Sequence record: PQ464628.1
From: Escherichia phage MirsaeidiM_Esher2
Direction: 5' to 3' (one strand)
Length of the DNA: 40,547 bases
The translations under genes were made by a program, and so were the position numbers. This document shows, piece after piece, positions 11,446 to 39,912 of this stretch; position 1 is the first letter of the stretch, and each line of letters starts with the position of its first letter. The notes under the pieces are model-generated. The model saw only the letters and a program-made list of their open reading frames with translations. It had not been told where the DNA came from and searched no databases.

Positions 11446-12144
11446 ATGGCTAAAGAGCAACTGAAGACTTTCACCACTCCGGTAGCTGGTATCGTTGAGC
11501 CTTACGCATGGCTTAACAAAGCAGACACCAAGTTTAACGAGCGTGGTGAGCATAAGGTTAACCTGACTTTCAGTCTGGATGACCAGAAGGTCCGTAAGAT
11601 GATTGATGTCTTACAGAAGATTCACGACGATGCGTATGCGAAAGCACTCGCAGACCACGAGAAGAACCCACCTCAGGTTCAGCGTGGCAAGAAGCCTATC
11701 GAGCCGCGCGAAGGCGATATGCCGTGGATTGAGAATGGGGACGGTACTGTTACCCTGAAGTTTAAATGCTTTGCGTCTTACCTTAAAGACGGCAAGTCAG
11801 AGCCTATCGTATTACGGTTCTACGACACCGATGCTAAGTTAATCCGTGACGTCCCGAATATTGGCGCTGGCTCAAAGCTGAAGGTCAAGTTTAAAGTCCT
11901 GCCGTTCAAGTGGAACGCTGCGACTGGTGCAAGCGTTAAGCTCCAGCTTGAGTCCTGCCTTCTGGTAGAACTGAAGGAGTGGAAAGGTGATGGTGCGGGT
12001 GGCGATGGTGGCTGGGGTGATGATGAAGACCTCGGTACTGGCTACAAAGCGTCAGCCGATGGTGACTTCGGGTCTGATGACTTCGGTGACGATGGTTCCG
12101 AAGGTGGTTCCGAGTCCAACTCTGGTGGCGATTACGACTTCTAA
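11446..12144 (+). CDS. 2.5: single-stranded DNA-binding protein (T7 gp2.5 homolog)
   Basis: 232 aa; GSKLKVKFKVLPFKWNAATGASVKLQLES and acidic Gly/Asp-rich tail ending DYDF, as in T7 gp2.5. Confidence 0.95.
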   Translation: MAKEQLKTFTTPVAGIVEPYAWLNKADTKFNERGEHKVNLTFSLDDQKVRKMIDVLQKIHDDAYAKALADHEKNPPQVQRGKKPIEPREGDMPWIENGDGTVTLKFKCFASYLKDGKSEPIVLRFYDTDAKLIRDVPNIGAGSKLKVKFKVLPFKWNAATGASVKLQLESCLLVELKEWKGDGAGGDGGWGDDEDLGTGYKASADGDFGSDDFGDDGSEGGSESNSGGDYDF

Positions 12145-12599
12145 TGGCCCAATGGTCTGCAAAACGGGGGCACTCTGTGGGTGCCTACCGCTCTGGACTT
12201 GAAGCCAAGAACCAGCAGTGGCTGGAACAGAACGGCGTCAAAGCGGAGTACGAAAGCCATTATATCAACTATGTGATTCCGGCTTCCGACCACAAGTACA
12301 CACCAGATTTTATCCTTCCCAACGGTATCATCGTGGAGACCAAAGGTATCTTCGATAGTGATGACCGTAAGAAGCACCTTCTGGTACGAGAACAGCACCC
12401 AGAGTTAGACATCCGGTTCGTGTTCTCAAGTTCCCGCTCCAAGTTATACAAAGGGTCTCCGACCACGTATGGCGCATGGTGCGAAAAGAACGGCTTTAAA
12501 TTTGCCGATAAATTCATCCCGGTTGAGTGGCTGCGAGAGGCGACTGTACGTCTGCCTTCTGGTATACTCATTCCCAAGAAGAAAGGAGTTAAGTTATGA
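12144..12599 (+). CDS. 3: endonuclease I, Holliday-junction resolvase (T7 gp3 homolog)
   Basis: 151 aa; YVIPASDHKYTPDFILPNGIIVETKG...DDRKKHLLVREQHPELDIRFVFSS matches recalled T7 gp3. Confidence 0.95.
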   Translation: MAQWSAKRGHSVGAYRSGLEAKNQQWLEQNGVKAEYESHYINYVIPASDHKYTPDFILPNGIIVETKGIFDSDDRKKHLLVREQHPELDIRFVFSSSRSKLYKGSPTTYGAWCEKNGFKFADKFIPVEWLREATVRLPSGILIPKKKGVKL

Positions 12600-12820: not shown

Positions 12821-13274
12821 GGTTCAGTTCAACCCACGGTCCCGGACTGACGCTATCTTCGTTCACTGTTCGGCTACCAAGCCAGAGATGGACATCGGGG
12901 TAGAGACCATCCGTATGTGGCACAAGCAGCAAGGCTGGCTGGACGTAGGCTACCACTTTATCATCAAGCGCGATGGTACTGTGGAAGAGGGTCGCCCGGT
13001 CAATGTCGTAGGGTCACACGTTAAGGACTGGAACTCACGGTCTGTAGGCGTCTGCCTTGTAGGGGGAATTGACGCTAAGGGTCAGTTTGAAGCTAACTTC
13101 ACTCCAGCCCAGATGAACTCCCTGCGCAACAAGCTGGAGGAGCTTATGAGTAAGTACCCTAATGCAGAGCTAATGGCCCATCATTCAGTGGCAGCCAAAG
13201 CCTGTCCGAGTTTCGACGTGAAGCGATGGTGGACCAAGAATGAACTGGTTACATCTGACCGCGAATCAGTTTAG
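12807..13274 (+). CDS. 3.5: N-acetylmuramoyl-L-alanine amidase / lysozyme (T7 gp3.5 homolog)
   Basis: DAIFVHCSATKP, QGWLDVGYHFIIKRDGTVEEGR, AHHSVAAKACPSFDVKRWW match recalled T7 lysozyme. Confidence 0.95.
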   Translation: MMVSKVQFNPRSRTDAIFVHCSATKPEMDIGVETIRMWHKQQGWLDVGYHFIIKRDGTVEEGRPVNVVGSHVKDWNSRSVGVCLVGGIDAKGQFEANFTPAQMNSLRNKLEELMSKYPNAELMAHHSVAAKACPSFDVKRWWTKNELVTSDRESV

Positions 13275-13683
13275 TATCGACCCATCTAGTCCCTCAGGTC
13301 TATCCAGAAATGGTAAGCCTACTGGATGGGACGCTGGTAGATATTGGAGGACTAAGGTTAAAGGGAAGCCAGTAATGTGCCACGTCATAATCATGATGCT
13401 CAAAACTGGAGGTCCTCTACCAGATGGAATGGAAGTTGACCATATTGACCGTGACGGCCATAACAACAGGATTGACAACCTCAGGATTGTGACTAGGCAA
13501 GTCAACGTATGCAACACCAGCGTTAGGAAGGACTCAAAGTCTGGCATCAAGGGTGTAGCATACAGAGCTGGCAGAACTAAGCCTTATGTAGCACACAAGC
13601 AGCGCTTTGGAGAGAGGACGTCGAAGTCTTTCAAAACATCTAATGAAGCCATCGAATGGCTAGGAGAACAACCCAATGATTAA
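13240..13683 (+). CDS. 3.8: HNH endonuclease with AP2-like domain (T7 gp3.8 position)
   Basis: HNH motif EVDHIDRDGHNNRIDNLRIVTRQVN; downstream GIKGVAYRAGRTKPYVAHK (AP2-like); start overlaps the 3' end of the amidase gene by 35 nt. Confidence 0.8.
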   Translation: MNWLHLTANQFSIDPSSPSGLSRNGKPTGWDAGRYWRTKVKGKPVMCHVIIMMLKTGGPLPDGMEVDHIDRDGHNNRIDNLRIVTRQVNVCNTSVRKDSKSGIKGVAYRAGRTKPYVAHKQRFGERTSKSFKTSNEAIEWLGEQPND

Positions 13684-16112: not shown

Positions 16113-18284
16113 ATGTTTGACATTAAGAGTATCTGGGGTTCTGACATCGAGACCAACGGTCTCCTTGATACAGTCTCCCAGTTTCACTGTGGGGTCCTGA
16201 TTAACGCCGAGTCGAATGAGACCCTTAAGTACGGGGTAGCTCCGATGGTCGGTATCGTCGGTGGCTTCAAAGAGTATGTTCATAAAGTGGAAGAGATTGC
16301 CGCATCACCTGATGGTATGCTGGTATTCCATAACGGTATCAACTATGACGTCCCGGCTATAGACAAGCTGAAGCGTTTGTACTTTGGGAAACGCTTTAAC
16401 TTCCCGAAACATAAGATGATTGATACCTTGGTGCTGGGACGCTTGATGTATCCAAACATTAAGTTCTCAGACATGGGCGCAGTGAAAGCTGGTCGTCTTC
16501 CACCTAAGATGATGGGACGCCAGTCTCTTGAGGCTTGGGGCTATCGTCTCGGTGAGATGAAAGGTGAGTACAAACACGATTACGTTGCCAAGTGCAAGGC
16601 TGAAGGCATCGAATATAAGGCTGGGGACGAATGGTTGTTCCCGTCTCAGGAGATGCTGGACTATAACGTTCAAGACGTTGTGGTCACACTGGCGTTGTTC
16701 AAGAAGTTCCTGACTGACAAGTATTACTTCCAGTCTGAACAGTTCGCTTTCGAACAGATTTATGCGTTGCGTCTGGAACACGATGCTGCGTGGACCTGTG
16801 CGAAGATGGAGCGTAACGGCTATCCGATGAACACCGAGATGGTCGAAGGCTTATATCGTGAACTCACCGTCAAACGTGCGGAGCTGCTGGACAAGCTGCG
16901 TTCGACTTTCGGCAGCTGGTACGCACCAAAGGGAGGAAAGGAGTTCTTCAAGCACCCACGGACAGGCAAGGACCTTCCGAAGTATCCGAGAGTCGTGTAT
17001 CCTAAGGTCGGTGTCATCTTTAAGAAGCCGAAGAACAAAGCTCAACGCTTAGGTCTTGAACCTTGTGAACTCGATACGCGAGACACGATGGAGGGAGCAC
17101 CATTCACGCCAATCACTTACGTTGAGTTTAATCCGGGAAGCGGAGACCACTTAGCGAAAGTATTGATGGAGCGTGGCTGGGAGCCTGTGGACTTCACTGA
17201 CACAGGGAAACCTGTAGTCGATGACGAGACGTTGGAACACGTTAAGTTACCAGACGCAGAGGCTCAGGCTTGCGTAGAGCTGGTCCGTGAGTATCTGGTA
17301 GTCCAGAAGCGAATCGGTCAGGCGGCTGAAGGTAAGAACGCATGGTTGAAACTTGTAGGTCCAGACGGACGTATGCACGGTTCAATCAACCCTTGTGGAG
17401 CAGTAACCGGACGTGCGACCCATAGTTCACCAAACATGGCTCAGGTCCCGGCTAACGGTGCTCCGTATGGTGAGACTTGCCGTGGTGCTTTCGGTGCAGC
17501 GTGGAACAAGAAGGATGGCAAGCCAGACCCTTGGATTCAAGTAGGTGTGGATGCTTCAGGTCTTGAGCTTCGTTGTCTGGGGAACCGAGCGGCTCCGTTT
17601 GATGGTGGCGACTATGCGAAGACTGTGGTCGAAGGTGACATCCACTGGGCCAACGCAGTCAACGCTGGGTTAGCACCTAACGTCCCACGCGACAAGTCCA
17701 GCCACGACCACGATGCTTTCCGTAACAACGCCAAGACGTTCATCTATGCGTTTCTGTATGGTGCAGGTGCCGCTAAGATTGGACTGATTGTAGGCGGTGG
17801 TAAGAAGGAAGGCGCGGCCCTGATGAAGAAATTTATTGAGGGTACACCAGCTATCAAGGACCTGCGAGAGGCTGTCCAGAACACGCTCATCTCCGAGTCC
17901 AAGTGGGTAGATGGTGAGAACATCGTGAAGTGGAAACGCCGCTGGCTTAAAGGTCTGGACGGTCGACGCATTCACATCCGGTCTCCACACTCAGCACTTA
18001 ACGCCTTGCTTCAAGGTGATGGTGCGGTGGTCTGCAAGCACTGGATAGTCGAGACCGAGCGTATGCTCGAAGAGGCCGGGTATGTCCACGGCTGGGAAGG
18101 AGACTTCGCGTACATGGCTTGGGTCCACGATGAGCTACAGATTGCGTGTCGCACTCAGGAGATTGCCGAAGAAGTCGTCAAGATTGCTCAACTTGCTATG
18201 CGTAAGGTGGGCGAGTTCTATAACTTTAAATGTGTGTTAGACACGGAGGGTAAAATTGGACCAACGTGGAAAGAATGCCATTGA
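16113..18284 (+). CDS. 5: DNA polymerase (T7 gp5 homolog, family A)
   Basis: 723 aa; FHNGINYDVPA, AVTGRATHSSPNMAQ, NAKTFIYAFLYGAG, AYMAWVHDELQ, C-terminal GKIGPTWKECH match recalled T7 gp5. Confidence 0.97.
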   Translation: MFDIKSIWGSDIETNGLLDTVSQFHCGVLINAESNETLKYGVAPMVGIVGGFKEYVHKVEEIAASPDGMLVFHNGINYDVPAIDKLKRLYFGKRFNFPKHKMIDTLVLGRLMYPNIKFSDMGAVKAGRLPPKMMGRQSLEAWGYRLGEMKGEYKHDYVAKCKAEGIEYKAGDEWLFPSQEMLDYNVQDVVVTLALFKKFLTDKYYFQSEQFAFEQIYALRLEHDAAWTCAKMERNGYPMNTEMVEGLYRELTVKRAELLDKLRSTFGSWYAPKGGKEFFKHPRTGKDLPKYPRVVYPKVGVIFKKPKNKAQRLGLEPCELDTRDTMEGAPFTPITYVEFNPGSGDHLAKVLMERGWEPVDFTDTGKPVVDDETLEHVKLPDAEAQACVELVREYLVVQKRIGQAAEGKNAWLKLVGPDGRMHGSINPCGAVTGRATHSSPNMAQVPANGAPYGETCRGAFGAAWNKKDGKPDPWIQVGVDASGLELRCLGNRAAPFDGGDYAKTVVEGDIHWANAVNAGLAPNVPRDKSSHDHDAFRNNAKTFIYAFLYGAGAAKIGLIVGGGKKEGAALMKKFIEGTPAIKDLREAVQNTLISESKWVDGENIVKWKRRWLKGLDGRRIHIRSPHSALNALLQGDGAVVCKHWIVETERMLEEAGYVHGWEGDFAYMAWVHDELQIACRTQEIAEEVVKIAQLAMRKVGEFYNFKCVLDTEGKIGPTWKECH

Positions 18285-18654
18285 CGGAAAGTCCCTGCAT
18301 TTTACAGGCGCTGCGAGCGAGCTGTATGCAAGTTACCGACTGACATCTATTGGACACCAAGTCTTCCTACCAGCGTTCACCCAGTCCAAAGCGGACTTAG
18401 TGGTGGATATTAACGGGACCCTTAAGAGGGTTCAGGTGAAGACTGGGACCAAGCTGAAGAACTGCAATAGCATTCAGGTCCGACTCGGTGGGTGCGGAAA
18501 GCCCACCTACAGCCCGGGAGAGATTGACCTACTGGCTGTGGTCTATCAGGATAACTTCTGGCTGATTCCGTTCGTGGAAGAAGTGAGGCTTAAAACCTCC
18601 ATGTGTATAAACCTAACGTCCGACAAGAAGTACGGACACTTTAAACAGGAGTAA
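18256..18654 (+). CDS. hypothetical protein (132 aa), possible PD-(D/E)xK-like nuclease fold
   Basis: TTG start with GGAGGG 5 nt upstream, overlapping the end of gene 5; contains D-x(n)-QVK arrangement (ADLVVDINGTLKRVQVK); function is inference only. Confidence 0.5.
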   Translation: MDQRGKNAIDGKSLHFTGAASELYASYRLTSIGHQVFLPAFTQSKADLVVDINGTLKRVQVKTGTKLKNCNSIQVRLGGCGKPTYSPGEIDLLAVVYQDNFWLIPFVEEVRLKTSMCINLTSDKKYGHFKQE

Positions 18655-18950: not shown

Positions 18951-19156
18951 GTGAATACTTACGGGTCCTAGCGGCCCTTAAGTCCTGCCCGAAGACCTTT
19001 CAGTCCAACTATGTGCGCAACAATGCAGCACTGGTGGCTGAGGCTGCGAGTCGTGGACATCTAAGCTGCCTGTCTATGGACGGGCGTAACAACGGTGCGT
19101 GGGAGATTACCGCCGAAGGCGTTAAGTTCCTGAACCAACACGGAGGCTGTCTATGA
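18947..19156 (+). CDS. 5.7: gp5.7-like protein
   Basis: 69 aa; LKSCPKTFQSNYVRNNAALVAEAASRGH..GAWEIT matches recalled T7 gp5.7; start overlaps previous stop. Confidence 0.75.
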   Translation: MSEYLRVLAALKSCPKTFQSNYVRNNAALVAEAASRGHLSCLSMDGRNNGAWEITAEGVKFLNQHGGCL

Positions 19157-19602
19157 AGATACCTGAAAGTCTGAAAGAGCTGGTCCTTGAAATGGGTGAG
19201 TGCGAGATGACGCACCGTAAGTATGCTGAGTTCTACGCATCTTGGTCTTACACCCTGACCGAGAAGGACGTTGAGTCCTACACCGAGTCTCCTTCTGAGG
19301 CTTATGAGTGGAGTCCGTTCATCGGACTGACCATCGTAGCTAGCGGTATGTGGGATGACAGCTACGGCTCAGAGGTAAACGACTGGGACGTGTACCGCCA
19401 AGTTGAGAAGGAGACCGAAATGTCGTCCAACTTCTGGAGCCTGATGTCCCACCTCAACTCAGATGACAACGACATGGCCCATGAGTTCGCCAACAAATGG
19501 CTGAAGCCTGAGGTGACTCTGGAACGTATTGAGGAGCCTAAAGTTCCCTTGATGCCATATGCAGTCGCTATGGCTACAGGAGGTCTGGACGATGGGTGCT
19601 GA
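19153..19602 (+). CDS. hypothetical highly acidic protein (149 aa) at the gp5.9 position
   Basis: SD GGAGG 6 nt upstream; strongly acidic composition; lies between gene 5.7 and the exonuclease gene. Confidence 0.6.
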   Translation: MKIPESLKELVLEMGECEMTHRKYAEFYASWSYTLTEKDVESYTESPSEAYEWSPFIGLTIVASGMWDDSYGSEVNDWDVYRQVEKETEMSSNFWSLMSHLNSDDNDMAHEFANKWLKPEVTLERIEEPKVPLMPYAVAMATGGLDDGC

Positions 19603-21187: not shown

Positions 21188-21610
21188 ATGCTACCATATC
21201 TCAACTCACGCGAAGGTCGCCACATGTGCGCTTGTCGCCTCTGGGAAGACGGGCAGTCTAACTTCAAGTCATTTGAGGACTTCAAAGCTCATACTTACCG
21301 TATGGCTGACGAGTTCGATGGTGAAGAGTACACAATCTACGATGTCTCAGGTCAACCAGTAGCGTATCTCTACATGCTGGCTACCGCATCTTGGCACCGA
21401 CCGACTCCCGGTCTTGACCTTTCAATAGTCGCTATTCGTCGTGACTCGCAGTCCTCCCGCAAGGTTCTTGAGACTGTCAGACACATCATAGACGAAGAGT
21501 GCAAGCGTTGGGGTCTTGGCTGGTATTCTCGTGTCAAGCATGTTTCCGGGTCGGTAGACATCGTAACAACCAAGTGCGTTAGCACGAACAAGGAGATTAA
21601 CCGTGGGTAA
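21188..21610 (+). CDS. gp7-like protein (by position)
   Basis: 140 aa; follows gp6.7 and precedes gp7.3 as in T7; no sequence motif verified. Confidence 0.55.
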   Translation: MLPYLNSREGRHMCACRLWEDGQSNFKSFEDFKAHTYRMADEFDGEEYTIYDVSGQPVAYLYMLATASWHRPTPGLDLSIVAIRRDSQSSRKVLETVRHIIDEECKRWGLGWYSRVKHVSGSVDIVTTKCVSTNKEINRG

Positions 21611-26021: not shown

Positions 26022-26588
26022 ATGTCTCAATACATTCCACTGAATGCTAACGATGACTTAGACGCCATCAACGATATGTTAGCTGCTATCGGTGAACCGG
26101 CAGTCCTACAGCTTGACGAAGGCAATGCTGACGTCTCGAATGCTCAACGCATCCTGCATCGTGTCAATCGTCAGGTCCAAGCTAAGGGATGGAACTTTAA
26201 CATTAATGAAGCTGCTGTCCTGACACCTGATGTCCAAGACAACAGGATTCGATTCCTGCCGTCATACCTTCGTGTAATGACTGCCGGGGCCACCAGCTAC
26301 TACAGCAACATGGGTGGATACCTGTACGACCTGTCCACTCAGTCAACCACTTTCACCGACCCTATAACGGTAGAGCTTGTTGAGATGAAACCGTTCTCTG
26401 AGATGCCTGTGGTATTCAGGGATTACATCGTTACCAAGGCCAGCCGTGAGTTCAACGCTAAGTTCTTCGGTAGCCCAGAGTCTGAGCTGTACCTTCGTGA
26501 GCAGGAAGCAGAACTCTATCAGCAGGTCATGGAATACGAGATGGACACTGGTCGCTACAACATGATGTCCGACATCGGGAGGGACTAA
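26022..26588 (+). CDS. 11: tail tubular protein A (T7 gp11 homolog)
   Basis: 188 aa; AINDMLAAIGEP, YIVTKASREFNAKFFG, MEYEMD..YNM match recalled T7 gp11. Confidence 0.95.
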   Translation: MSQYIPLNANDDLDAINDMLAAIGEPAVLQLDEGNADVSNAQRILHRVNRQVQAKGWNFNINEAAVLTPDVQDNRIRFLPSYLRVMTAGATSYYSNMGGYLYDLSTQSTTFTDPITVELVEMKPFSEMPVVFRDYIVTKASREFNAKFFGSPESELYLREQEAELYQQVMEYEMDTGRYNMMSDIGRD

Positions 26589-28945
26589 TGCCGCTTATTA
26601 CTCAGTCAATCAAGAACCTTAAAGGTGGCATTAGCCAACAGCCTGATATACTTAGGTTCTCAGACCAAGGCGAGGCACAGGTTAACTGCTGGTCATCCGA
26701 GAGTGATGGACTCCAGAAGCGTCCACCTACAGTCTTCAAGCGACGTCTTAACATCGACGTTGGAAGCAGCCCTAAGTTCCACCTGATTAACCGTGATGAG
26801 CAGGAGCAGTATTACATCGTGTTCAACGGGTCCAACATTCAGGTAGTCGACTTGAGCGGTAATCAATACTCAGTTTCAGGTGCGGTAGACTACGTTAAGT
26901 CGTCCAACCCGCGAGATGACATCCGTGTCGTTACCGTTGCAGACTATACGTTCATCGTGAACCGTAAGGTTGTCGTTAACGGTGGAAGCGAGAAGTCACA
27001 CTCTGGTTATAATCGTAAAGCTCGTGCTTTAATTAACCTGCGTGGTGGACAGTATGGTCGCACCCTTAAGGTAGGAATCAACGGAGGCGTTAAGGTTTCG
27101 CATAAGCTGCCAGCAGGTAATGATGCCGAGAATGACCCACCTAAGGTGGATGCTCAGGCCATCGGTGCAGCTCTGAGAGACCTTCTTGTTGCTGCTTACC
27201 CTACCTTCACTTTCGACCTTGGGTCTGGATTCCTGCTAATCACAGCTCCTTCAGGGACCGATATTAACTCAGTGGAGACGGAGGATGGCTACGCTAACCA
27301 GCTAATAAGCCCAGTCCTAGACACTGTGCAGACAATCTCTAAACTACCTCTTGCCGCTCCTAATGGGTATATCATTAAGATTCAAGGTGAGACAAACAGT
27401 AGCGCCGATGAATACTACGTGATGTATGACTCCAACACTAAGACGTGGAAGGAGACAGTGGAGCCGGGAGTTGTCACTGGGTTCGATAACACCACAATGC
27501 CACACGCCCTGGTACGACAATCTGATGGCTCCTTTGAGTTCAAGGCTCTGGACTGGTCTAAGCGTGGTGCTGGTAATGATGACACAAACCCTATGCCTAG
27601 CTTCGTGGATGCTACGATTAACGATGTGTTCTTCTACAGGAACAGGCTAGGGTTCTTGTCAGGCGAGAACGTAATCATGAGCCGTTCAGCCAGCTACTTT
27701 GCGTTCTTCCCTAAGAGTGTGGCGACACTGAGTGATGATGACCCTATTGATGTAGCTGTAAGTCACCCTCGAATCTCAATCCTTAAGTATGCCGTTCCGT
27801 TTAGCGAGCAGCTACTACTTTGGTCGGATGAGGTTCAGTTCGTGATGACAAGCTCTGGTGTCCTTACCTCGAAGTCTATCCAGCTTGATGTAGGCTCAGA
27901 GTTTGCCCTAGGTGACAATGCCAGACCGTTCGCTGTAGGACGCTCAGTCTTCTTCTCAGCTCCTCGTGGGTCATTCACCAGCATTAAGCGATACTTCGCT
28001 GTAGCTGATGTGTCTGATGTGAAGGATGCAGATGATACAACTGGTCACGTACTGTCCTACATCCCTAACGGGGTGTTTGATATTCAAGGTACAGGGACTG
28101 AGAACTACATCTGCGTCAACTCTACAGGTGCATACAACCGTATCTACATCTACAAGTTCTTGTTTAAGGACGGCGTACAGCTTCAAGCCTCTTGGTCACA
28201 CTGGGAGTTCCCTAAAGATGATAAGATTCTTGCGTCTGCTTCTATTGGCTCTACCATGTTCATCGTTCGTCAGCACCAAGGAGGGGTAGACATTGAGCAC
28301 CTTAAGTTCATCAAGGAGGCAACTGACTTTCCGTCAGAGCCATATAGACTCCATGTTGACTCCAAGGTGTCTATGGTCATCCCAATTGGCTCGTTTAATG
28401 CTGACACATATAAGACTACGGTTGACATTGGTGCTGCTTATAGCGGTAACGCTCCGTCTCCCGGTCGGTACTATCTGATTGACAGTCAGGGTGCTTATTT
28501 AGACCTTGGGGAATTAACCAGTATCTCTACTGTGATTACCCTCAACGGCGATTGGTCAGGACGTACAGTGTTCATCGGACGGTCCTATCTGATGTCCTAC
28601 AAGTTCTCACGGTTCCTGATTAAGATTGAAGATGATAGTGGCACTCAGTCTGAAGACACTGGTCGTCTACAGCTTCGTCGGGCTTGGGTCAACTACAAGG
28701 ACACTGGCGCTCTGAGACTCATTGTCAGAAACGGTGAGCGAGAGTTCGTTAACACCTTTAATGGGTACACCCTTGGTCAGCAAACCATAGGGACTACTAA
28801 CATTGGTGACGGGCAGTATCGCTTCGCTATGAATGGTAACGCATTAACCACGAGTCTAACCTTAGAGTCCGACTATCCTACCCCAGTGTCAATCGTTGGA
28901 TGTGGCTGGGAGGCGTCATACGCTAAGAAAGCTCGTTCCGTCTAA
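26588..28945 (+). CDS. 12: tail tubular protein B (T7 gp12 homolog)
   Basis: 785 aa; ATG overlaps gp11 stop (TAATG); size and position as T7 gp12. Confidence 0.93.
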   Translation: MPLITQSIKNLKGGISQQPDILRFSDQGEAQVNCWSSESDGLQKRPPTVFKRRLNIDVGSSPKFHLINRDEQEQYYIVFNGSNIQVVDLSGNQYSVSGAVDYVKSSNPRDDIRVVTVADYTFIVNRKVVVNGGSEKSHSGYNRKARALINLRGGQYGRTLKVGINGGVKVSHKLPAGNDAENDPPKVDAQAIGAALRDLLVAAYPTFTFDLGSGFLLITAPSGTDINSVETEDGYANQLISPVLDTVQTISKLPLAAPNGYIIKIQGETNSSADEYYVMYDSNTKTWKETVEPGVVTGFDNTTMPHALVRQSDGSFEFKALDWSKRGAGNDDTNPMPSFVDATINDVFFYRNRLGFLSGENVIMSRSASYFAFFPKSVATLSDDDPIDVAVSHPRISILKYAVPFSEQLLLWSDEVQFVMTSSGVLTSKSIQLDVGSEFALGDNARPFAVGRSVFFSAPRGSFTSIKRYFAVADVSDVKDADDTTGHVLSYIPNGVFDIQGTGTENYICVNSTGAYNRIYIYKFLFKDGVQLQASWSHWEFPKDDKILASASIGSTMFIVRQHQGGVDIEHLKFIKEATDFPSEPYRLHVDSKVSMVIPIGSFNADTYKTTVDIGAAYSGNAPSPGRYYLIDSQGAYLDLGELTSISTVITLNGDWSGRTVFIGRSYLMSYKFSRFLIKIEDDSGTQSEDTGRLQLRRAWVNYKDTGALRLIVRNGEREFVNTFNGYTLGQQTIGTTNIGDGQYRFAMNGNALTTSLTLESDYPTPVSIVGCGWEASYAKKARSV

Positions 28946-28952
28946 CTTATTG

Positions 28953-29002
28953 AAGGGCCTATAGATTTACCTTAACTATCACTATAGGGACTATAGGCCC
29001 TT
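28953..29002. repeat. perfect 12-bp inverted repeat (AAGGGCCTATAG / CTATAGGCCCTT) enclosing the phi13 promoter
   Basis: Arms 28953..28964 and 28991..29002 are exact reverse complements; in read-through RNA this forms an RNase III-type hairpin (R13-like). Confidence 0.6.
28970..28992 (+). promoter_or_regulatory. phage-RNAP promoter (CCTTAACTATCACTATAGGGACT)
   Basis: Consensus; upstream of gene 13. Confidence 0.8.
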
Positions 29003-29021
29003 AAGGTTATAAGGAGACTTT

Positions 29022-29483
29022 ATGTATATTCGCAAGGCTACGGATGTAGACGTTTGGTACGCTGCTGCACAACTTACAGATGACGACTTAGAGGAGTGTA
29101 AAGCCAACTACGGGACCACTGAAGGTCTCGCTGAAAGGATGCAAGCACACCTAACGTCTTCATCTGTGGTTTTGACTAACGCTACTGGGGACATTTACGC
29201 CTATGGAGGCAACCAAGGTGACAACGTTTGGTTCCTGACAACCAGAATGACCGAGCGTCTCCCACCTAAAGGTAAGCGAGAGTTCCGTGAGAGAGTAATG
29301 GAGTATCGTGACAAGATGCTGGAGGACTACCCGGTACTATGGAACTACGTCTGGGAAGGCAATGCGTCCCACATCCGGTTTCTCAAGTCAATAGGCGCTA
29401 AGTTCCACGACGATAAGTGGACCAGAAGTCCAGTGACTGGAGAAGTATTCATTCTATTCACAATCACCAAGGAGGACACGTGA
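29022..29483 (+). CDS. gp13-like internal virion/assembly protein (by position)
   Basis: 153 aa; SD AAGGAG; first gene after the phi13-like promoter. Confidence 0.65.
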
Positions 29484-29866
29484 CTAAGGTCTGTACCGTC
29501 TGTAAAATTGAAAAGCCACTAGAAGCGTTCTCTCCACGGAAAGACTCTAAGTGTGGTGTACGCTCTGCCTGTAAGCTGTGTCATAATGGACGGAGCCACA
29601 AGAACAAGGGATACGAGAAGTATCACATTACGCAGATAGAATATGATTCCATCCTAAAAGAGCAGGGCGGGGTCTGCGCAATCTGCAAGACATTAGGAAC
29701 TAGCCGAGGATTATGTGTTGACCACTGTCACACCTCCGGGAAAGTCCGAGGAATCCTATGTCATACCTGCAACCTAAAGCTGACCCGTAGAAACTACCAC
29801 TCTACATGCGAAGATTTCGATGGTAAGGCTGCTGAGTATCTGGCTACAAGCCGGAAGGGGGATTAG
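29480..29866 (+). CDS. endonuclease VII-like His-Me finger (HNH superfamily) nuclease
   Basis: Motif C-x2-C...[21 protein letters not shown] (endo VII signature) plus an N-terminal Cys cluster; no ATG in frame, GTG at 29480 with AAGGAGG 4 nt upstream overlaps the gp13 stop (GTGA); ORF track gives 29417. Confidence 0.7.
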
Positions 29867-29902
29867 GAAATTTGCGAACCAATTTCAATCGGTTTAGGTA
29901 TT

Positions 29903-30457
29903 ATGTCTGTAGCTGGTGCCACTATGTCCGCATCCCAACAGGCCAAGGCTGAAGGTGCAGCAATTGACGCTCAGAACCGACAGGCTCAGGAAATGGTTAA
30001 GCAGATGAACTACTCTGACGCCAACCTGAGGATGCAGGAGAGGGACCTGAAGGAACAGCAGATGGCTGAACTGACAGAGACCACTCTCAACGGTATCCGC
30101 AATCAGGGTATGGTACGAGCTGCGGTAGCTGAGTCAGGTCTGGAAGGTAACTCTATGGACAGGATTGAACGTCAGGTCAAAGGAGATACAGTCAAGGAGC
30201 GAGCAGGGATTACCGAAAGCTACAACCGTGACTATGCGGCTATCTTCGGGAACCGTATCGCCAACATTGAGAACACCAAGTCTGCTATCCACGGTCAAGG
30301 TAAAATCATCAAGACCAGCCCACTGGCTCATGCACTTAATGTTGCAAGCGCAGGGATGCAGGGGTACGCTGCTGGTAAGTCAATCTCTGGGGCATCAAGC
30401 TCTGGTGGTGCTGCACCGATTAGTGCTGCTAAAGGTACACCTACAGGTCATAGCTAA
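29903..30457 (+). CDS. 14: internal virion protein (T7 gp14 homolog)
   Basis: 184 aa; ...GLEGNSMDRIERQ..., NRDYAAIFG resemble recalled T7 gp14. Confidence 0.85.
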   Translation: MSVAGATMSASQQAKAEGAAIDAQNRQAQEMVKQMNYSDANLRMQERDLKEQQMAELTETTLNGIRNQGMVRAAVAESGLEGNSMDRIERQVKGDTVKERAGITESYNRDYAAIFGNRIANIENTKSAIHGQGKIIKTSPLAHALNVASAGMQGYAAGKSISGASSSGGAAPISAAKGTPTGHS

Positions 30458-30468
30458 GAGGAGGACTA

Positions 30469-32751
30469 ATGGCTAGTAATATTGAATCAGCTCTGGCTAA
30501 TCGGACTATGGGTCGTGGCAGAGCGCCGGGTAAAACTATCGCCGTCAACTATCAAGCAGCCAGCGTTCAGGCTCCAACTGGTGACTCCGGTCTGGCTCGG
30601 GCGTTAACCAACTTCGTTGAGTCTGGGACTGGATTATACAAGCAGTTCAAAGACGAGGAGAAGACACGGGCCGACGAGCGGTCTAACGAGATTATCCGTA
30701 AGCTGACACCTCAACAAAGACGTGAGGCTATCCAGAACGGCACATTGCTGTATCAGGATGACCCTTACGCTATGGAAGCACTTCGAGTCAAGACTGGTCG
30801 TAATGCTGCCTTTGCTGTAGACGACGAGATTAACGTTAAGATTCAGAACGGTGAGTTCCGTACACGTCAGGACATGGAAGAGTATCGCCACCAGCGACTT
30901 CAGGACGCAGCTAAGTCCTATGCTGAAGAGGCGGGTATTAACCCTACGGACGAGTTCTTCCAGCGTGGGTTCAACGATAACATCACAGACCGCAACATCG
31001 CTATCTATGGGTCTTTCAATAAGTATTTCAGCAAGCAGTCTGAAGAGACAGCAATGTTGAACACTCGTATTGAGATGAACTCATTCCTGAACGATGGCGA
31101 CCTGATGCGTTCACCTGAGTCTGGCAAGACATTCATGGCCTACCTTCGTGATGGACTGACTACTGCTGCTATCCCCTCGGACCAGCGAGCGCGGGAGGTC
31201 ATTACCCAGACGGTCCGTGACGCAATCCAGAAGTCAGGCGGCTCAAACTTCCTACAGCAAGTACGAGGCGAGCGCATCACCCTTAACGGCGTGGATGCTA
31301 CAGTCGAAGAGATTGTAGGACCTGATGTCTTCAACGCTGCTATTGTTGAGTCACAGGGAACTGAGTACAAGCTGGTGGCTAAGTATCAGGAAGACTTAGC
31401 GTTAGGCGTTCAGTCTGCGATTCTTCAGGACGACCCAACCATCGGTCTTGCCCAGATTCAGAAACTCAAGGAGCAGAACAACCTGCTTCAGCCGGGTGAA
31501 GAACTTACGCCTCAGCGTCAGATGCTTATTAATGCCGAAGCCAGCTTACTGGAAGCGGTCAAGCGTAAGTCTGCTGAACAGGCGAAGGAGAACACTAAGT
31601 TAATCCAGACCCAGAACAAGCAACTTGTCATCGACCAAGTATATCAGCGACGTCTGGCTGGAGACAACGTGTCCACCAACTATGAGGACCTTCCGGTCTC
31701 TGAATCCACAGGAGAGTTCAAGCGTTCAGACATGAACAACTATGCGTCTGCTAAGCTACAGCAGATTGACCAGATGGACATCCCTGAGGCTGCTAAAGAC
31801 GCACAGAAGGTGGCATTGTTAAGGGCTGACACTAACAATGGTCCGTTCCGTAATGCCTTCCAGACGCTGACTCAGGACGCTGCTGGTGAGTGGCAAGCTG
31901 CGGTCATCCGTGGGCAGTACGACCCAGACAAGATGAAACGCTTCGAGTCTCTTCGTCGTGCCTACACTCAGGACCCTTCAAGTTTTGCTGCTCTGTATCC
32001 TGACCAAGCTCAGTTGTTCTCTACGTTCGACCAGATGGACAAGATGGGTCTGGACCCTCAGACGATGATTGAAGCTGATAAGCAAGCTGCAAGTCAAAGC
32101 CGTGAGATGCGAATGGAGTCAGACAAGGCGTGGCAGGAGTTGAAGAACGACTCTCGGAATAAGGACCTTTCGCGTCTTCCTACGTCTCTGGACGCAAGTG
32201 CTCGTAAGGTCTGGGACTCATGGTACTATCGTACAGGTAACGCTGACGCTGCAACTCAGCAGACTCAACGCTGGCTTAATGAGAACACCGTAACGTTCCA
32301 GTCTGAGGGTTCTGATGGTAAGTCCATCGGCATGGTGTCCAAACACCAGCTTATGGTCGGGGATAACCCAGAGTCGTGGCAGGTTGGTCGAGACATTATC
32401 GACACCGCTCGTAAGCAGCTCATTAAGGCCAACCCTTGGGTAGTGAACTCTCAGTTGTCCGTTGTTGAACAGAACGGCTCTATCTTCCTCCAAGACGCTA
32501 CAGGTACTATTCGTATTCGCTACGATAAAGAACTTGTAGGTAAACTCTACCGTGAACAACAGCAGAAGGCACAAGATGCCGCATATGCTCAGGCAGAACG
32601 TGACGCTAACAAGCGAGCGCGTATCGTCGGGACTAAAGCTGCTGGTGACAAACGTCGAGCTGACCGAGAGGCCAACATCGAGAAGCGCGGTGGGATGTAC
32701 AATGACGTCTCACTGGAGGGTATCGCAAACACCTTAATCGGTAAGGAGTAA
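30469..32751 (+). CDS. 15: internal core protein (T7 gp15 homolog)
   Basis: 760 aa; SD GAGGAGG; size and position as T7 gp15. Confidence 0.93.
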   Translation: MASNIESALANRTMGRGRAPGKTIAVNYQAASVQAPTGDSGLARALTNFVESGTGLYKQFKDEEKTRADERSNEIIRKLTPQQRREAIQNGTLLYQDDPYAMEALRVKTGRNAAFAVDDEINVKIQNGEFRTRQDMEEYRHQRLQDAAKSYAEEAGINPTDEFFQRGFNDNITDRNIAIYGSFNKYFSKQSEETAMLNTRIEMNSFLNDGDLMRSPESGKTFMAYLRDGLTTAAIPSDQRAREVITQTVRDAIQKSGGSNFLQQVRGERITLNGVDATVEEIVGPDVFNAAIVESQGTEYKLVAKYQEDLALGVQSAILQDDPTIGLAQIQKLKEQNNLLQPGEELTPQRQMLINAEASLLEAVKRKSAEQAKENTKLIQTQNKQLVIDQVYQRRLAGDNVSTNYEDLPVSESTGEFKRSDMNNYASAKLQQIDQMDIPEAAKDAQKVALLRADTNNGPFRNAFQTLTQDAAGEWQAAVIRGQYDPDKMKRFESLRRAYTQDPSSFAALYPDQAQLFSTFDQMDKMGLDPQTMIEADKQAASQSREMRMESDKAWQELKNDSRNKDLSRLPTSLDASARKVWDSWYYRTGNADAATQQTQRWLNENTVTFQSEGSDGKSIGMVSKHQLMVGDNPESWQVGRDIIDTARKQLIKANPWVVNSQLSVVEQNGSIFLQDATGTIRIRYDKELVGKLYREQQQKAQDAAYAQAERDANKRARIVGTKAAGDKRRADREANIEKRGGMYNDVSLEGIANTLIGKE

Positions 32752-35700: not shown

Positions 35701-36653
35701 GACGTCAAGGCTTCCTGTCTGACATCGTGGAGCATAGCCTGACTGGTAGTAAGCGTAAGTTCGATGACCGCTGGCTTAAGACCGCTGGTATCTCTGACGA
35801 GCAGTGGAAGGGCATTAAGTCCCTCATCCGTGAGTCAGTGACTCGTGGTCCAGACGGGAAGTACACCATCAAGGATAAGAAGGCGTTCAGTCAGGACCCA
35901 AGGGCTATGGACCTGTGGCGTATGGGTGACACCATCGCTGATGAAACGTTACTCCGTCCTCATAAGCTGTCCAACATGGACGCCAAGGCTTATGGTCCTA
36001 TCGCTAAGACTGTCCTTCAGTTTAAGAACTTCGTCATCAAGTCCATCAATGGGCGAACCATGCGTACCTTCTATAACGCCACGAAGAACAACCGAGCGAT
36101 TGACGCTGCACTATCGACCGTGATGTCTATGGGTCTGGCTGGTATCTACTACATGGCTCAGGCGCACGTCAAGGCTTATGCTATGCAGGATGGTCGAGAC
36201 CGTGACTACCTTAAGCAAGCTCTGGACCCGACGATGATTGGTTATGCGGCTCTGTCCCGTAGTTCACATCTGGGTGGCCCACTTGGGGTAGCTAACATTC
36301 TAGGTGGCATCGCTGGGTATGAGGACACTAAGATGCTCCGTTCGTCTATCCTACCTCGTTCGCCTACAGAGAAGCCTGAACGTGCCATCACGTTTGGTGC
36401 AGCTACAAGTGACCCTGTGATGAATGTTGTTGGTAACTTCTTGGAGCAGGTTCCAGCTTTCGGATATGCTGCTAACGTTGGCGTTTCTGCTTACAACTTG
36501 GCTGGCTACCTGAAGGCCGACACTCGGGTAAACGAGCGAGACTACATGACCGGGATGTATAACACCTTCCGTGAACTGGTTCCGAACGACCCGATTACTC
36601 AGAAGTTGCTACTGGGAACGTTTGAGGAGCAAGGTATCCACATCAAGGACTAA
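32757..36653 (+). CDS. 16: internal core protein (T7 gp16 homolog) with divergent N-terminal domain
   Basis: 1298 aa; central/C-terminal regions colinear with recalled T7 gp16 (NPAMFG, GTYVPHVYS, EARNLFDSD, RVNGDIAIM, MDLWR, AALSRSS); N-terminal ~120 aa lack the T7 SLT motif. Confidence 0.95.
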   Translation: MATRGIRNNNIGNIRVSKDQWEGATGDDGSFVTFDSPESGVRALAKNLQSYGRQGYDSIEKIINRWAPPSENATQSYIDSVVAATGIPATQSIDLTNPDVLASLSEAIGYHETGSRYDHEVYKTGVSRALSGAGGITPKTPPVSANVFDALTEGLKAKPKVALGENLPTAAGLNIEGQAPEAPNESFGEMFYKSTGETMQEREDRSTWFGFGSATEAEVKNSMVGVAIRAGQTEDSLDVIGDVFNPTRWNNHKWTREELDQIRNAGVLPQYYGVITGGSPQNLTELINLALDNQKLDQEKAKAGTGAQLAAGVIGAGVDPLTYVPIAGQIGKGGKLVNKMFTVAAQSGALAGVSEMARTSVAGGDAHVAEAILGGALFGGGMTAIADGLGRALGRNTNEFAGPATRLEARETSRNVDGQDLSRLPIQEGEETFSHQGVKFADVPNEPGSVRLEDGSILIGENPLNPKTRQVFDEVIEPERAAAGVNLGGLTEIGLKLLRSENPEIRGVAADLVRSPTGMQSGASGKIGTTASDVFERLRAVDHRFYNDIDDAVTEALKDPYFQTAFWRDSGAFRQDIYQRVSMAIEDGSGNLKAELTPGELKVYDLLKNQFDAKREMMENPAMFGRPDAQSIFPGSRFKGTYVPHVYSNQMKELYIKELGSTEALQEAIKKSWLTSYASRPEVKKRVDEALLEADPTLTPEGLAAAVDKYANDKAYGISHTEQFERSSVMEENINGLVGLENNSFLEARNLFDSDMSIVLPNGQTFSVNNLREWDMDKIVPAYNRRVNGDIAIMAGTGKTTKDMKDLVETMMNKAGDDGKLKGEVSTLRDTLKILTGRSRRDGADDAAFATVMRTMTDLSFFAKNAYMGVQNLTEIGGMLARGNVRAMLHGVPIFRDLAFRNKKVGASEIKDLHNVIFGKELDDSIRPSKQDVIDRLRSYSDLGRGTATALGTAKYYTGELAVRSPFTKVLNGTTNYLLDAGRQGFLSDIVEHSLTGSKRKFDDRWLKTAGISDEQWKGIKSLIRESVTRGPDGKYTIKDKKAFSQDPRAMDLWRMGDTIADETLLRPHKLSNMDAKAYGPIAKTVLQFKNFVIKSINGRTMRTFYNATKNNRAIDAALSTVMSMGLAGIYYMAQAHVKAYAMQDGRDRDYLKQALDPTMIGYAALSRSSHLGGPLGVANILGGIAGYEDTKMLRSSILPRSPTEKPERAITFGAATSDPVMNVVGNFLEQVPAFGYAANVGVSAYNLAGYLKADTRVNERDYMTGMYNTFRELVPNDPITQKLLLGTFEEQGIHIKD

Positions 36654-36717: not shown

Positions 36718-39700
36718 ATGTCCACGATTACACAATTCCCTTCAGGAAACACTCAGTACAGGATTGAGTTCGACTACCTAGCCAGAACGTTTGTTGTTGT
36801 TACGCTGGTGAATAGCTCTAACCCTACCCTGAACCGTGTACTGGAAGTTGGTCGAGATTACCGATTCCTTAATCCAACGATGATTGAGATGTTGGTTGAC
36901 CAATCAGGTTTCGACATCGTTCGTATTCACCGTCAGACTGGAACTGACTTAGTGGTAGACTTCAGGAATGGCTCAGTGTTGACAGCTAGTGACCTGACAA
37001 ATTCAGAGCTTCAGGCTATCCATATTGCAGAAGAAGGTCGAGACCAAACGGTTGACTTAGCGAAGGAATATGCCGATGCTGCTGGTAGCTCTGCTGGCAA
37101 CGCTAAGGATAGCGAGGACGAAGCACGCCGAATCGCTGAGAGTATCAGGGCAGCTGGTCTAATTGGCTATATGACCCGTCGCTCCTTCGAGAAAGGCTAC
37201 AACGTTACAACATGGAGCGAGGTCCTTCTATGGGAAGAGGATGGTGATTATTACCGCTGGGATGGTACGCTTCCAAAGAACGTTCCTGCTGGTTCAACTC
37301 CTGAAACTTCCGGTGGGATTGGATTAGGTGCGTGGGTTAGTGTTGGTGATGCTGCTTTAAGAAGTCAGATTTCAAACCCGGAAGGGGCAATACTCTACCC
37401 TGAATTACATAGAGCACGCTGGCTTGATGAAAAAGATGTTCGTGGTTGGGGTGCTAAAGGGGATGGTGTCACTGATGATACAGCAGCGTTAACGAGCGCA
37501 TTAAACGACACACCGGTTGGACAAAAGATTAATGGCAATGGGGGAACATATAAGGTCACATCCCTGCCTGACATTAGTAGATTCGTCAATACTCGTTTTG
37601 TATATGAACGTATTCCAGGTCAGCCGCTTTATTATGTCTCTGAAGAATTTGTTCAAGGTGAACTGTTTAAAATAACGGACACCCCTTATTACAATGCGTG
37701 GCCACAGGATAAAGCGTTCGTTTACGATGATGTTATTTACTGCCCGTTCATGGCTGGTGATAGACATGGGGTCAGTCGTCTGCATGTATCATGGGTTAAG
37801 TCTGGTGATGACGGTCAAACATGGTCTACTCCAGAGTGGTTAACTGATCTGCATCCAGATTACCCTACAGTGAACTATCATTGTATGAGTATGGGTGTAT
37901 GTCGCAACCGTCTGTTTGCCATGATTGAAACACGTACTTTAGCCAATAACGCATTAACCAATTGTGCATTGTGGGATCGCCCCATGTCTCGTAGCCTGCA
38001 TCTTACTGGTGGTATCACTAAAGCTGCAAATCAGCGATATGCAACAATACATGTACCAGACCACGGACTATTCGTGGGTGATTTTGTTAACTTCTCTAAT
38101 TCTGCGGTAACAGGTGTATCCGGTGATATGAATGTTGCAACCGTAATAGATAAGGACAACTTCACGGTTCTTACACCCAACCAGCAGACTTCAGATTTGA
38201 ATAACGCTGGAAAGAATTGGCACATGGGTACTTCTTTCCATAAGTCTCCATGGCGTAAGACAGACCTTGGGCTAATCCCTCGTGTCACAGAGGTGCATAG
38301 CTTTGCTACTATTGATAACAATGGCTTTGTTATGGGTTATCATCAAGGCGATGTAGCCCCACGCGAAGTTGGGCTTTTCTACTTCCCTGATGCTTTCAAT
38401 AGCCCATCTAGTTATGTTCGTCGTCAGATACCATCTGAGTATGAACCAGATGCGTCAGAGCCATGCATCAAGTACTATGACGGTGTATTATACCTTATCA
38501 CTCGTGGCACTCGTGGGGATAGACTAGGTAGCTCTTTGCATCGTAGTAGAGACATAGGTCAGACTTGGGAGTCACTGAGATTTCCACATAATGTTCATCA
38601 TACTACATTACCTTTTGCTAAAGTAGGGGATGACCTTATTATGTTTGGTTCAGAACGTGCAGAAAATGAATGGGAAGCAGGTGCACCCGATGATCGTTAC
38701 AAGGCATCTTATCCTCGCACCTTCTATGCACGCTTGAATGTAAACAATTGGAATGCAGATGATATTGAATGGGTTAACATCACTGACCAGATTTATCAGG
38801 GCGGAATAGTTAACTCAGGTGTAGGTGTTGGTTCGGTAGTTGTGAAGGATAATTACATCTACTACATGTTTGGTGGAGAGGACCATTTTAACCCATGGAC
38901 ATATGGAGATAACTCAGCGAAGGATCCCTTCAAATCAGATGGTCATCCCTCAGATTTGTATTGCTACAAAATGAAGATTGGCCCAAGCAATCATGTTTCC
39001 CGTGATTTCAGGTATGGTGCTGTACCTAACAGAGCTGTTCCCGTGTTTTTTGATACGAATGGGATTCGCACTGTTCCTGCGCCAATGGAATTTACAGGGG
39101 ATTTGGGTTTAGGGCATGTGACCATTAGAGCCAGCACCAGTAGTAACATTCGCTCTGAAGTTTTAATGGAAGGTGAATATGGGTTTATCGGGAAATCTAT
39201 ACCGACTGATAACCCGGCAGGGCAGCGCACCATATTTTGCGGGGGTGAAGGCACCAGTTCAACGACTGGCGCACAGATTACGCTTTATGGTGCAAATAAC
39301 ACCGACTCAAGGCGAATAGTTTACAATGGTGCTGAGCATCTGTTCCAGAACGCTGACGTTAAGCCTTATCTCGATAACGTGATTGCGCTTGGTGGACCAA
39401 GTAACCGTTTCACAACTGCATATCTCGGAAGCAACCCTATTGTTACTTCTAATGGGGAGAAGAAAACAGAGCCGGTAGTTTTTGATGATGCTTTCCTAGA
39501 TGCCTGGGGTGACGTTCACTACATCATGTATCAATGGTTAGATGCTGTTCAACTGAAAGGCAATGATGCTCGTATTCACTTCGGGGTTATTGCTCAGCAA
39601 ATTCGTGATGTATTCATTGCACACGGTCTGATGGATGAAAACAGTACGAATTGTCGTTATGCCGTTCTGTGCTATGACAAGTATCCACGGTTGACCGATA

Positions 39701-39912
39701 CGGTATTTTCGCACAATGAAATCATTGAACACACTGACGAGGAGGGTAATGTCACTACTACGGAAGAGCCTGTATTCACTGAGGTGGTTATCCATGAAGA
39801 GGGTGAGGAGTGGGGTGTTCGGCCTGACGGAATTTTCTTTGCTGAAGCCGCTTATCAGAGAAGAAAACTGGAAAGAATCGAAGCCAGACTTTCTGCTCTT
39901 GAACAGAAGTAA
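36718..39912 (+). CDS. 17: tailspike: gp17-type N-terminal adaptor + endosialidase catalytic domain + C-terminal intramolecular chaperone domain
   Basis: 1064 aa; N-terminus EFDYLARTFVVVTL like T7 gp17; Asp-boxes SGDDGQTW (37801..37824) and SRDIGQTW (38545..38568); overall matches recalled K1F endosialidase; AT-richer than flanking genes. Confidence 0.93.
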   Translation: MSTITQFPSGNTQYRIEFDYLARTFVVVTLVNSSNPTLNRVLEVGRDYRFLNPTMIEMLVDQSGFDIVRIHRQTGTDLVVDFRNGSVLTASDLTNSELQAIHIAEEGRDQTVDLAKEYADAAGSSAGNAKDSEDEARRIAESIRAAGLIGYMTRRSFEKGYNVTTWSEVLLWEEDGDYYRWDGTLPKNVPAGSTPETSGGIGLGAWVSVGDAALRSQISNPEGAILYPELHRARWLDEKDVRGWGAKGDGVTDDTAALTSALNDTPVGQKINGNGGTYKVTSLPDISRFVNTRFVYERIPGQPLYYVSEEFVQGELFKITDTPYYNAWPQDKAFVYDDVIYCPFMAGDRHGVSRLHVSWVKSGDDGQTWSTPEWLTDLHPDYPTVNYHCMSMGVCRNRLFAMIETRTLANNALTNCALWDRPMSRSLHLTGGITKAANQRYATIHVPDHGLFVGDFVNFSNSAVTGVSGDMNVATVIDKDNFTVLTPNQQTSDLNNAGKNWHMGTSFHKSPWRKTDLGLIPRVTEVHSFATIDNNGFVMGYHQGDVAPREVGLFYFPDAFNSPSSYVRRQIPSEYEPDASEPCIKYYDGVLYLITRGTRGDRLGSSLHRSRDIGQTWESLRFPHNVHHTTLPFAKVGDDLIMFGSERAENEWEAGAPDDRYKASYPRTFYARLNVNNWNADDIEWVNITDQIYQGGIVNSGVGVGSVVVKDNYIYYMFGGEDHFNPWTYGDNSAKDPFKSDGHPSDLYCYKMKIGPSNHVSRDFRYGAVPNRAVPVFFDTNGIRTVPAPMEFTGDLGLGHVTIRASTSSNIRSEVLMEGEYGFIGKSIPTDNPAGQRTIFCGGEGTSSTTGAQITLYGANNTDSRRIVYNGAEHLFQNADVKPYLDNVIALGGPSNRFTTAYLGSNPIVTSNGEKKTEPVVFDDAFLDAWGDVHYIMYQWLDAVQLKGNDARIHFGVIAQQIRDVFIAHGLMDENSTNCRYAVLCYDKYPRLTDTVFSHNEIIEHTDEEGNVTTTEEPVFTEVVIHEEGEEWGVRPDGIFFAEAAYQRRKLERIEARLSALEQK

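Follow-up and report, generated by a model that had tools for sequence, protein, structure and literature searches.

Gene 13.5 of Escherichia phage MirsaeidiM_Esher2 is probably a functional free-standing homing endonuclease gene of the endonuclease VII-motif (DHHRN) branch of the His-Me-finger superfamily, as judged from its sequence and from its distribution among related phages. The gene is located between genes 13 and 14 of sequence record PQ464628.1 (40,547 nt). The whole of this record was analysed and is referred to as the window; coordinates are window positions unless a compared sequence is named. Literature searches for a cleavage or homing experiment on any gene 13.5 protein gave annotation-level mentions only.

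The window represents the genome of a K1F-like podovirus (genus Kayfunavirus) in circularly permuted form: an Rz-like gene and the large terminase gene (87-2296) come first, in place of the early region. Its first 25 kb were 95% identical to Escherichia phage vB_EcoP_F, the closest relative. The tail fibre is an endosialidase of the K1F type, which makes K1-capsulated E. coli the probable host. The main features of the genome are as follows.

533-2296: large terminase gene, distant on the map from gene 13.5
12144-12599: T7-type endonuclease I gene (E=8.9e-82)
26588-28945: gene 12, nozzle
28970-28992, plus strand: phi13, late promoter of the phage RNA polymerase (23 of 23 nt identical to the annotated phi13 of EcoDS1)
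29022-29483, plus strand: gene 13, internal virion or scaffold protein A, allele 'A' (Pfam Phage_T7_Gp13, E=3e-35)
29480-29866, plus strand: gene 13.5, free-standing endonuclease VII-type (DHHRN, beta-beta-alpha-Me) endonuclease (128 aa, GTG start, TAG stop)
29870-30457, plus strand: gene 14, internal virion protein B (Pfam T7_gp14, E=8.7e-42; annotated from ATG 29903 in relatives)
30469-32751: gene 15
36718-39912, plus strand: tail fibre, K1F-type endosialidase (End_beta_propel, E=2e-221)

The window was scanned for the 23-nt phage-polymerase promoter CCTTAACTATCACTATAGGGACT, allowing up to 6 mismatches, and eleven matches were obtained between 2391 and 36671. Because phi13 lies upstream, with the next promoter-like site only at 36649 and no terminator-like site within 28900-30600, gene 13.5 is predicted to belong to the late transcript from phi13 that starts at gene 13 and continues through gene 14 onward to gene 16. 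A consensus scan for a promoter of its own gave one sigma-70-like match, no more than in shuffled sequence. A second copy of gene 13.5 was not found in the window by local tblastn.

Other small genes were recorded in the same genome. A free-standing HNH_3 nuclease gene (13240-13683, plus strand, E=4.3e-15) directly follows the lysozyme/amidase gene and is probably homing-endonuclease-like as well. The third small nuclease gene lies at 18256-18654 (plus strand; PD-(D/E)XK_5, E=4.2e-9), overlapping the DNA polymerase gene at the latter's 3' end. Two further plus-strand ORFs at 19153-19602 and 21188-21610 (149 and 140 aa) had no Pfam match.

The GTG start reported earlier as overlapping the stop of gene 13 was found as described: GTG at 29480-29482 and the gene 13 TGA at 29481-29483 form the sequence GTGA, and because of this overlap translation of gene 13.5 is probably coupled to that of gene 13. 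Four nucleotides upstream of the GTG is the following element.

29469-29475, plus strand: Shine-Dalgarno sequence AAGGAGG

Junction alignment (K1F, AAGGAGGACGTATGTGCGAG; window, AAGGAGGACACGTGACTAAG) indicated that this AAGGAGG serves gene 14 in relatives with an empty site and gene 13.5 in the window. A longer ORF from GTG 29417 (149 aa) was not accepted, since it runs over part of gene 13 in a different frame and the homologues begin at the position equivalent to 29480, behind the Shine-Dalgarno sequence (with ATG in ST21, Penshu1 and EcoDS1), which identifies 29480 as the real start.

Occupancy of the gene 13 / gene 14 junction was determined with a flank-only query, which gave 212 phage records covering at least 80% of it (215 flank-matching records were also counted). 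The allele of the window was present in 13 of these ~212-215 records. A further 8 carried at the same site a 44%-identical endonuclease VII allele, the 'gene 13.5' of EcoDS1 (~53% nucleotide identity), so that an endonuclease VII gene occupies the site in ~10% of ~212 related phages. The junction is empty in T7, K1F and vB_EcoP_F, and likewise in many Kayfunaviruses of Salmonella, Citrobacter and Morganella with ~94% identical flanks. The earlier note had stated that T7 has no gene at this position and had proposed a recent or mobile insertion of a homing-endonuclease-like selfish element, to be delimited by comparison with relatives lacking it and to be given up if the gene were universal in the family. 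Gene 14 of T7 indeed begins 4 nt past the end of gene 13, and with ~13 + 8 of ~212 records occupied the gene is not universal. The comparison with empty-site relatives, made as an alignment of 20 genomes, set the limits of an insert slightly larger than the ORF, and the recent or mobile nature of the insertion was borne out by a tract of near-identity and by a genealogy discordant with the flanks; the proposal of a selfish element is thus supported by the comparison of relatives. Insert and tract are located as follows.

29478-29872, plus strand: inserted cassette of ~395 nt, replacing GTATG or TGATATG (5-7 nt at the gene 14 start codon)
29365-29983, plus strand: near-identity (co-transfer) tract of 619 nt common to ZCEC02 and PSK1

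Flank positions fixed between carriers and non-carriers were only 29868, 29869 and 29872. When these fixed differences were used to look for the target site, only the cassette edge and the change of ATG to ATT were obtained; the site would span the junction, and its exact limits cannot be drawn from fixed differences.

The near-identity tract is centred on gene 13.5 and was 99.7% identical to ZCEC02 and PSK1, with flanks ~4.5% divergent. Between ZCEC02 and the window, 2 mismatches were counted in the 619 nt of the tract versus 53 over the 1182 nt around it (Poisson P=3.7e-10). The gene has thus been transferred recently together with its flanks, and the natural tract is compatible with co-conversion.

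Selection on gene 13.5 was estimated between diverged intact alleles and gave dN/dS values of 0.05-0.14; intact copies are under strong purifying selection. Four decayed copies were found. An internal in-frame deletion of 204 nt was present in KM02; the Esher7 remnant consists only of the first 12 and the last 12 codons, fused in frame; and in ZG49 the 5' half is missing along with the end of gene 13. In the fourth, the ST21 allele (2076-2462 of the compared sequence), the zinc ligand Cys94 is replaced by Arg (GILRHTCN, C94R). The Penshu1 allele, 98% identical to that of ST21, retains Cys94, and the ST21 copy may have been inactivated recently. A homing endonuclease gene would be expected to show such a mixture of invasion, maintenance and decay.

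A nuclease useful to the phage could also account for the strong purifying selection. Gene 13.5 could be an accessory nuclease that harms co-infecting competitors, degrades host DNA or processes DNA and was spread by ordinary homologous recombination, a reading that we regard as unlikely. It accommodates the low dN/dS up to saturating synonymous divergence and the co-expression of the gene with essential late genes, and a role in attacking host DNA was a speculation in a paper on a Hafnia phage (PMC8861465). Against it, ~90% of the close relatives, the closest included, do without the gene, at least four lineages let it decay, and the near-identity tract is centred on the gene itself; to exclude competitors, moreover, the enzyme would in practice do the same thing at the molecular level as in homing.

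The protein was examined by profile, alignment and structure comparison. The profile search by which the earlier note had proposed to check its endonuclease VII / His-Me finger assignment matched Pfam Endonuclease_7 (PF02945) at residues 46-104, well above the cutoff (E=1.3e-16, 60.7 bits, gathering cutoff 23.6), and PHROG 2633 'endonuclease VII' was matched with E=1.9e-26; these matches and the dN/dS of 0.05-0.14 argue that the gene is not a chance ORF. The CAIC motif quoted in that note is present in the translation as GGVCAICKT and is preceded, as stated there, by another Cys cluster (C5, C8, C31, C34). The family assignment also held in sequence matches to solved structures and in the fold search. 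An alignment of 63 homologues was built from a search of 5.8 billion proteins, in which the best match had only 84% identity. C66, C69, D81, H82, H84, R90, C94, C97 and N98 were invariant in this alignment, and C5, C8, C31 and C34 were each at least 90% conserved. The two modules of the protein are encoded as follows.

29492-29581, plus strand: first Cys4 cluster (C5, C8, C31, C34), putative first beta4-alpha2 zinc repeat and DNA-reading module
29675-29773, plus strand: catalytic beta-beta-alpha-Me core (C66-x2-C69 ... D81 H82 x H84 ... R90 ... C94-x2-C97 N98)

The core residues correspond to D40, H41, H43, R54 and N62 of T4 endonuclease VII plus the zinc ligands. An AlphaFold2 model of the protein had a mean pLDDT of 87, and the beta-beta-alpha-metal fold by which the His-Me finger superfamily is recognised was found. 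The best match among solved structures was Hpy99I (PDB 3FC3), both by sequence (E=1.6e-4, residues 3-105 versus Hpy99I 76-182) and by Foldseek (E=1.4e-4). T4 endonuclease VII was matched with residues 59-121 only (E=0.02), covering only T4 residues 16-85. The two beta4-alpha2 zinc repeats of Hpy99I span residues 65-190; the first recognises DNA through the major groove, and the second acts as the nuclease (PMC2699513). Both Cys4 clusters of the gene 13.5 protein are predicted to bind zinc; by homology with Hpy99I, the first repeat would read DNA, and the second would carry the Asp-His...Asn one-metal active site. The Hpy99I-like anatomy, the lack of the T4 dimerisation domain and the presence of endonuclease I in the phage make a site-specific duplex cutter, not a resolvase, the most likely activity.

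Several GenBank records annotate the product as recombination endonuclease VII, a Holliday-junction resolvase ('recombination endonuclease VII' in the record of Penshu1). The Endonuclease_7 match and the catalytic residues common to T4 endonuclease VII fit this name, but we consider the function very improbable: the motif is C-terminal (residues 66-98 of 128) and is followed by ~30 residues versus ~95 in the T4 enzyme, a helical dimerisation or junction-binding domain is absent, the protein has an additional zinc repeat at its N-terminus, like the duplex-specific Hpy99I, T7 endonuclease I is already in the phage, and most relatives lack the gene.

Genealogies of gene 13.5 and its neighbours were compared by synonymous divergence. 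Between the window and U8, dS was 0.012 for gene 13.5 versus 0.257 for gene 14; between the window and ST21 it was 1.55 versus 0.27; and between ST21 and Penshu1 it was 0.024 versus 0.51. Gene 13 (compared over 29022-29470) occurs as two alleles of ~66% nucleotide identity in a genus whose neighbouring genes are 93-97% identical, and gene 13.5 adjoins both; between U8 and the window, gene 13.5 was 98.4% identical and gene 13 only 65.7%. The switch between the gene 13 alleles coincides exactly with the left edge of the nuclease cassette, which matches the described pattern that nuclease genes occupy boundaries of genetic exchange (PMC10448857). As a separate observation, the 3' part of gene 12 (27600-28945) had ~70% identity in MopsHU1 and CR44b versus 93-97% in other relatives, and is another mosaic block just upstream of gene 13. 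In Przondovirus and phiYeO3-12-like phages, homologues of gene 13.5 occupy this same junction. Others were located elsewhere: in Esher7 in the early region before the RNA polymerase gene (1980-2432 of the compared sequence), in Yep-phi inside a split, intron-containing DNA polymerase gene (2501-2761 of the compared sequence), and in Yersinia phage WX1 as a tandem pair with the endonuclease VII motif (2158-2947 of the compared sequence). Downstream of the WX1 pair, a ~660-aa gene wrongly annotated as 'endonuclease' occupies the place of the DNA polymerase gene.

Free-standing homing genes are recognised by scattered occurrence at a single conserved site in close relatives and by a genealogy that disagrees with that of the flanks, and gene 13.5 shows both. 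That gene 13.5 is instead an ancestral gene of the genus, lost many times and now immobile, is scarcely credible: occupation of the same junction in several Studiervirinae genera and the existence of deletion derivatives agree with it, but genomes that differ by 4-34% in the neighbouring genes have copies of gene 13.5 with 98-99.7% identity, and vertical descent with loss fits neither the combination of a dS above 1.3 for the alleles and ~0.27 for the flanks (window and ST21) nor that of near-identical alleles and a flank dS of 0.51 (ST21 and Penshu1). The tract and the discordant genealogy prove recombination; that a break made by the nuclease was its driver does not follow from them.

If gene 13.5 is a homing endonuclease gene, the protein would be made late in infection from the phi13 transcript, and the genome of a co-infecting Kayfunavirus with an empty gene 13 / gene 14 junction would be cut at or very near the junction. 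The break would be repaired by the phage recombination machinery with the carrier genome as template, and gene 13.5 would be copied into the recipient with ~0-120 bp of adjoining DNA towards gene 13 and ~85-120 bp towards gene 14. The carrier would be protected by the insertion itself, which splits the junction and includes the change of the gene 14 ATG to ATT. In this scheme we infer the target site, the double-strand cleavage and recombination driven by a break as opposed to ordinary recombination. For an element that needs to cut a competitor ahead of packaging, late (class III) expression is somewhat surprising, although other phage homing endonucleases are known to be expressed late.

The start of gene 14 was compared in carriers and non-carriers. 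ATT was found at the ancestral ATG position (29870-29872, plus strand) in 12 of 12 genomes with the cassette or a remnant of it, versus ATG or GTG in 10 of 10 other genomes. The TAG of gene 13.5 is in frame with this ATT, two codons upstream. The only Shine-Dalgarno-like element before the ATT is intragenic.

29855-29862, plus strand: Shine-Dalgarno-like AAGGGGGA, inside the 3' end of gene 13.5, ~7 nt upstream of the ATT

This element was kept in all intact and all decayed copies. The three independent deletion derivatives (KM02, Esher7 and ZG49) all retain the 3' end of the cassette, and two of the three still have a leader mini-ORF, in frame and terminated by the same TAG. The ten codons 29873-29902 still encode the conserved N-terminus of gene 14, CEPISIGLGI; among carriers, 13 of their 30 sites vary, yet CEP[IV]SIG[LM]G[IVL] is encoded throughout, a TCA-to-AGC serine swap included. 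With this coding-like pattern of variation the codons still look translated, and gene 14 of carriers is probably mis-annotated as starting at 29903, although recombination with empty-site alleles could also produce the pattern. Since the old Shine-Dalgarno sequence of gene 14 now serves gene 13.5, the ATG has become ATT, and the only Shine-Dalgarno-like element before it is internal, we tentatively suggest that the cassette is entrenched: gene 14 might be initiated at AUU through the internal element, by termination-reinitiation or by both, and clean loss might be lethal or costly. This suggestion, which we hold to be somewhat less probable than its negation, would explain the retention of the 3' end in KM02, Esher7 and ZG49 and of the mini-ORF in two of them.

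The gene call itself adds little, as near-identical copies have been deposited and the family has already been proposed as homing endonucleases. The gene is real and was correctly interpreted; judged by sequence it is an uncharacterised member of the DHHRN type, of modest interest. The value of the locus is that a single junction in a well-sampled genus presents empty sites, two deeply diverged alleles, several sub-lineages, a co-transfer tract and a decay series. In K1F-like phages this junction would be convenient for homing tests of the DHHRN type, and it is suited to testing nuclease genes as markers of genetic-exchange boundaries (PMC10448857). For annotation, the product of gene 13.5 should not be named a resolvase, and the start of gene 14 in carriers needs to be reconsidered. 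Engineers of K1F-type therapeutic phages should expect a recombinogenic locus in mixed infections.

Several known systems were compared with gene 13.5. T4 endonuclease VII (gp49) has an N-terminal motif and a long helical, domain-swapped dimerisation domain; in the gene 13.5 protein the motif is C-terminal, an N-terminal zinc repeat is added, and the helical domain is missing, the protein ending ~30 residues after N98. Hpy99I likewise has two beta4-alpha2 Cys4 zinc repeats, the second with the Asp/His/Asn active site, and the match of gene 13.5 spans most of both. However, Hpy99I needs an N-terminal SH3-like beta-barrel for activity, whereas the gene 13.5 protein starts at the first zinc repeat, and no partner methyltransferase of the Hpy99I type adjoins the gene, whose neighbours are genes 13 and 14 in the phage late operon; a restriction system of this type was therefore discarded. 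A terminase-associated HNH nuclease of the HK97 gp74 type was rejected because the large terminase gene (533-2296) is far away and the genome is T7-type, not cos-packaging. An intron-encoded homing endonuclease was also rejected: the gene lies between two complete genes, and no intron or ribozyme family was found in the whole window with Rfam at gathering thresholds. The endonucleases of Berlinvirus and T7-like phages (Yep-phi, Berlin gp19) interrupt an essential gene, unlike the free-standing gene 13.5; the frame in the two-piece DNA polymerase gene of Yep-phi was 43.5% identical to gene 13.5 residues 48-127.

Closer likenesses were found among DHHRN proteins. The records of EcoDS1, phiYeO3-12 and many other phages already carry the annotation 'gene 13.5, endonuclease VII', and near-identical copies are in GenBank. 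The gp13.5 of EcoDS1 and phiYeO3-12 has the same junction, the same architecture of two zinc repeats plus DHHRN and a similar length (125-133 aa), and EcoDS1 gp13.5 and the Przondovirus homologue (phage Adeo) were 44-45% identical to the gene 13.5 protein over ~105 residues. Between the EcoDS1 type and the window type, the nuclease genes have only ~53% nucleotide identity in flanks of 93-98%, and the EcoDS1-type insertion retains and overlaps the gene 14 ATG, whereas the window-type cassette swaps it for ATT. F-CphI of cyanophage S-PM2, the founding DHHRN member, is free-standing like gene 13.5 and has the motif in the C-terminal half with D/H/H/R/N and both CxxC pairs; its site-specific cleavage was demonstrated beside a group I intron in psbA, whereas gene 13.5 has no intron and is likened to it by description. 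The DHHRN homing-endonuclease signature was given as CX2-4C ... D-H-x-H ... R ... CX2C-N by Fang et al. (2018), who listed EcoDS1 gp13.5 among the proteins with a C-terminal motif in their supplementary homologue table, described the homologues in phages Berlin and YpP-G as encoded by introns, and placed the endonuclease VII-motif proteins of podoviruses that encode endonuclease I in an 'endonuclease clade' (PMC6083498). The gene 13.5 protein carries this signature, with all nine residues invariant among the 63 homologues, and it agrees with that clade both in the position of its motif (residues 66-98 of 128) and in the presence of another resolvase, endonuclease I (12144-12599), in the same phage.
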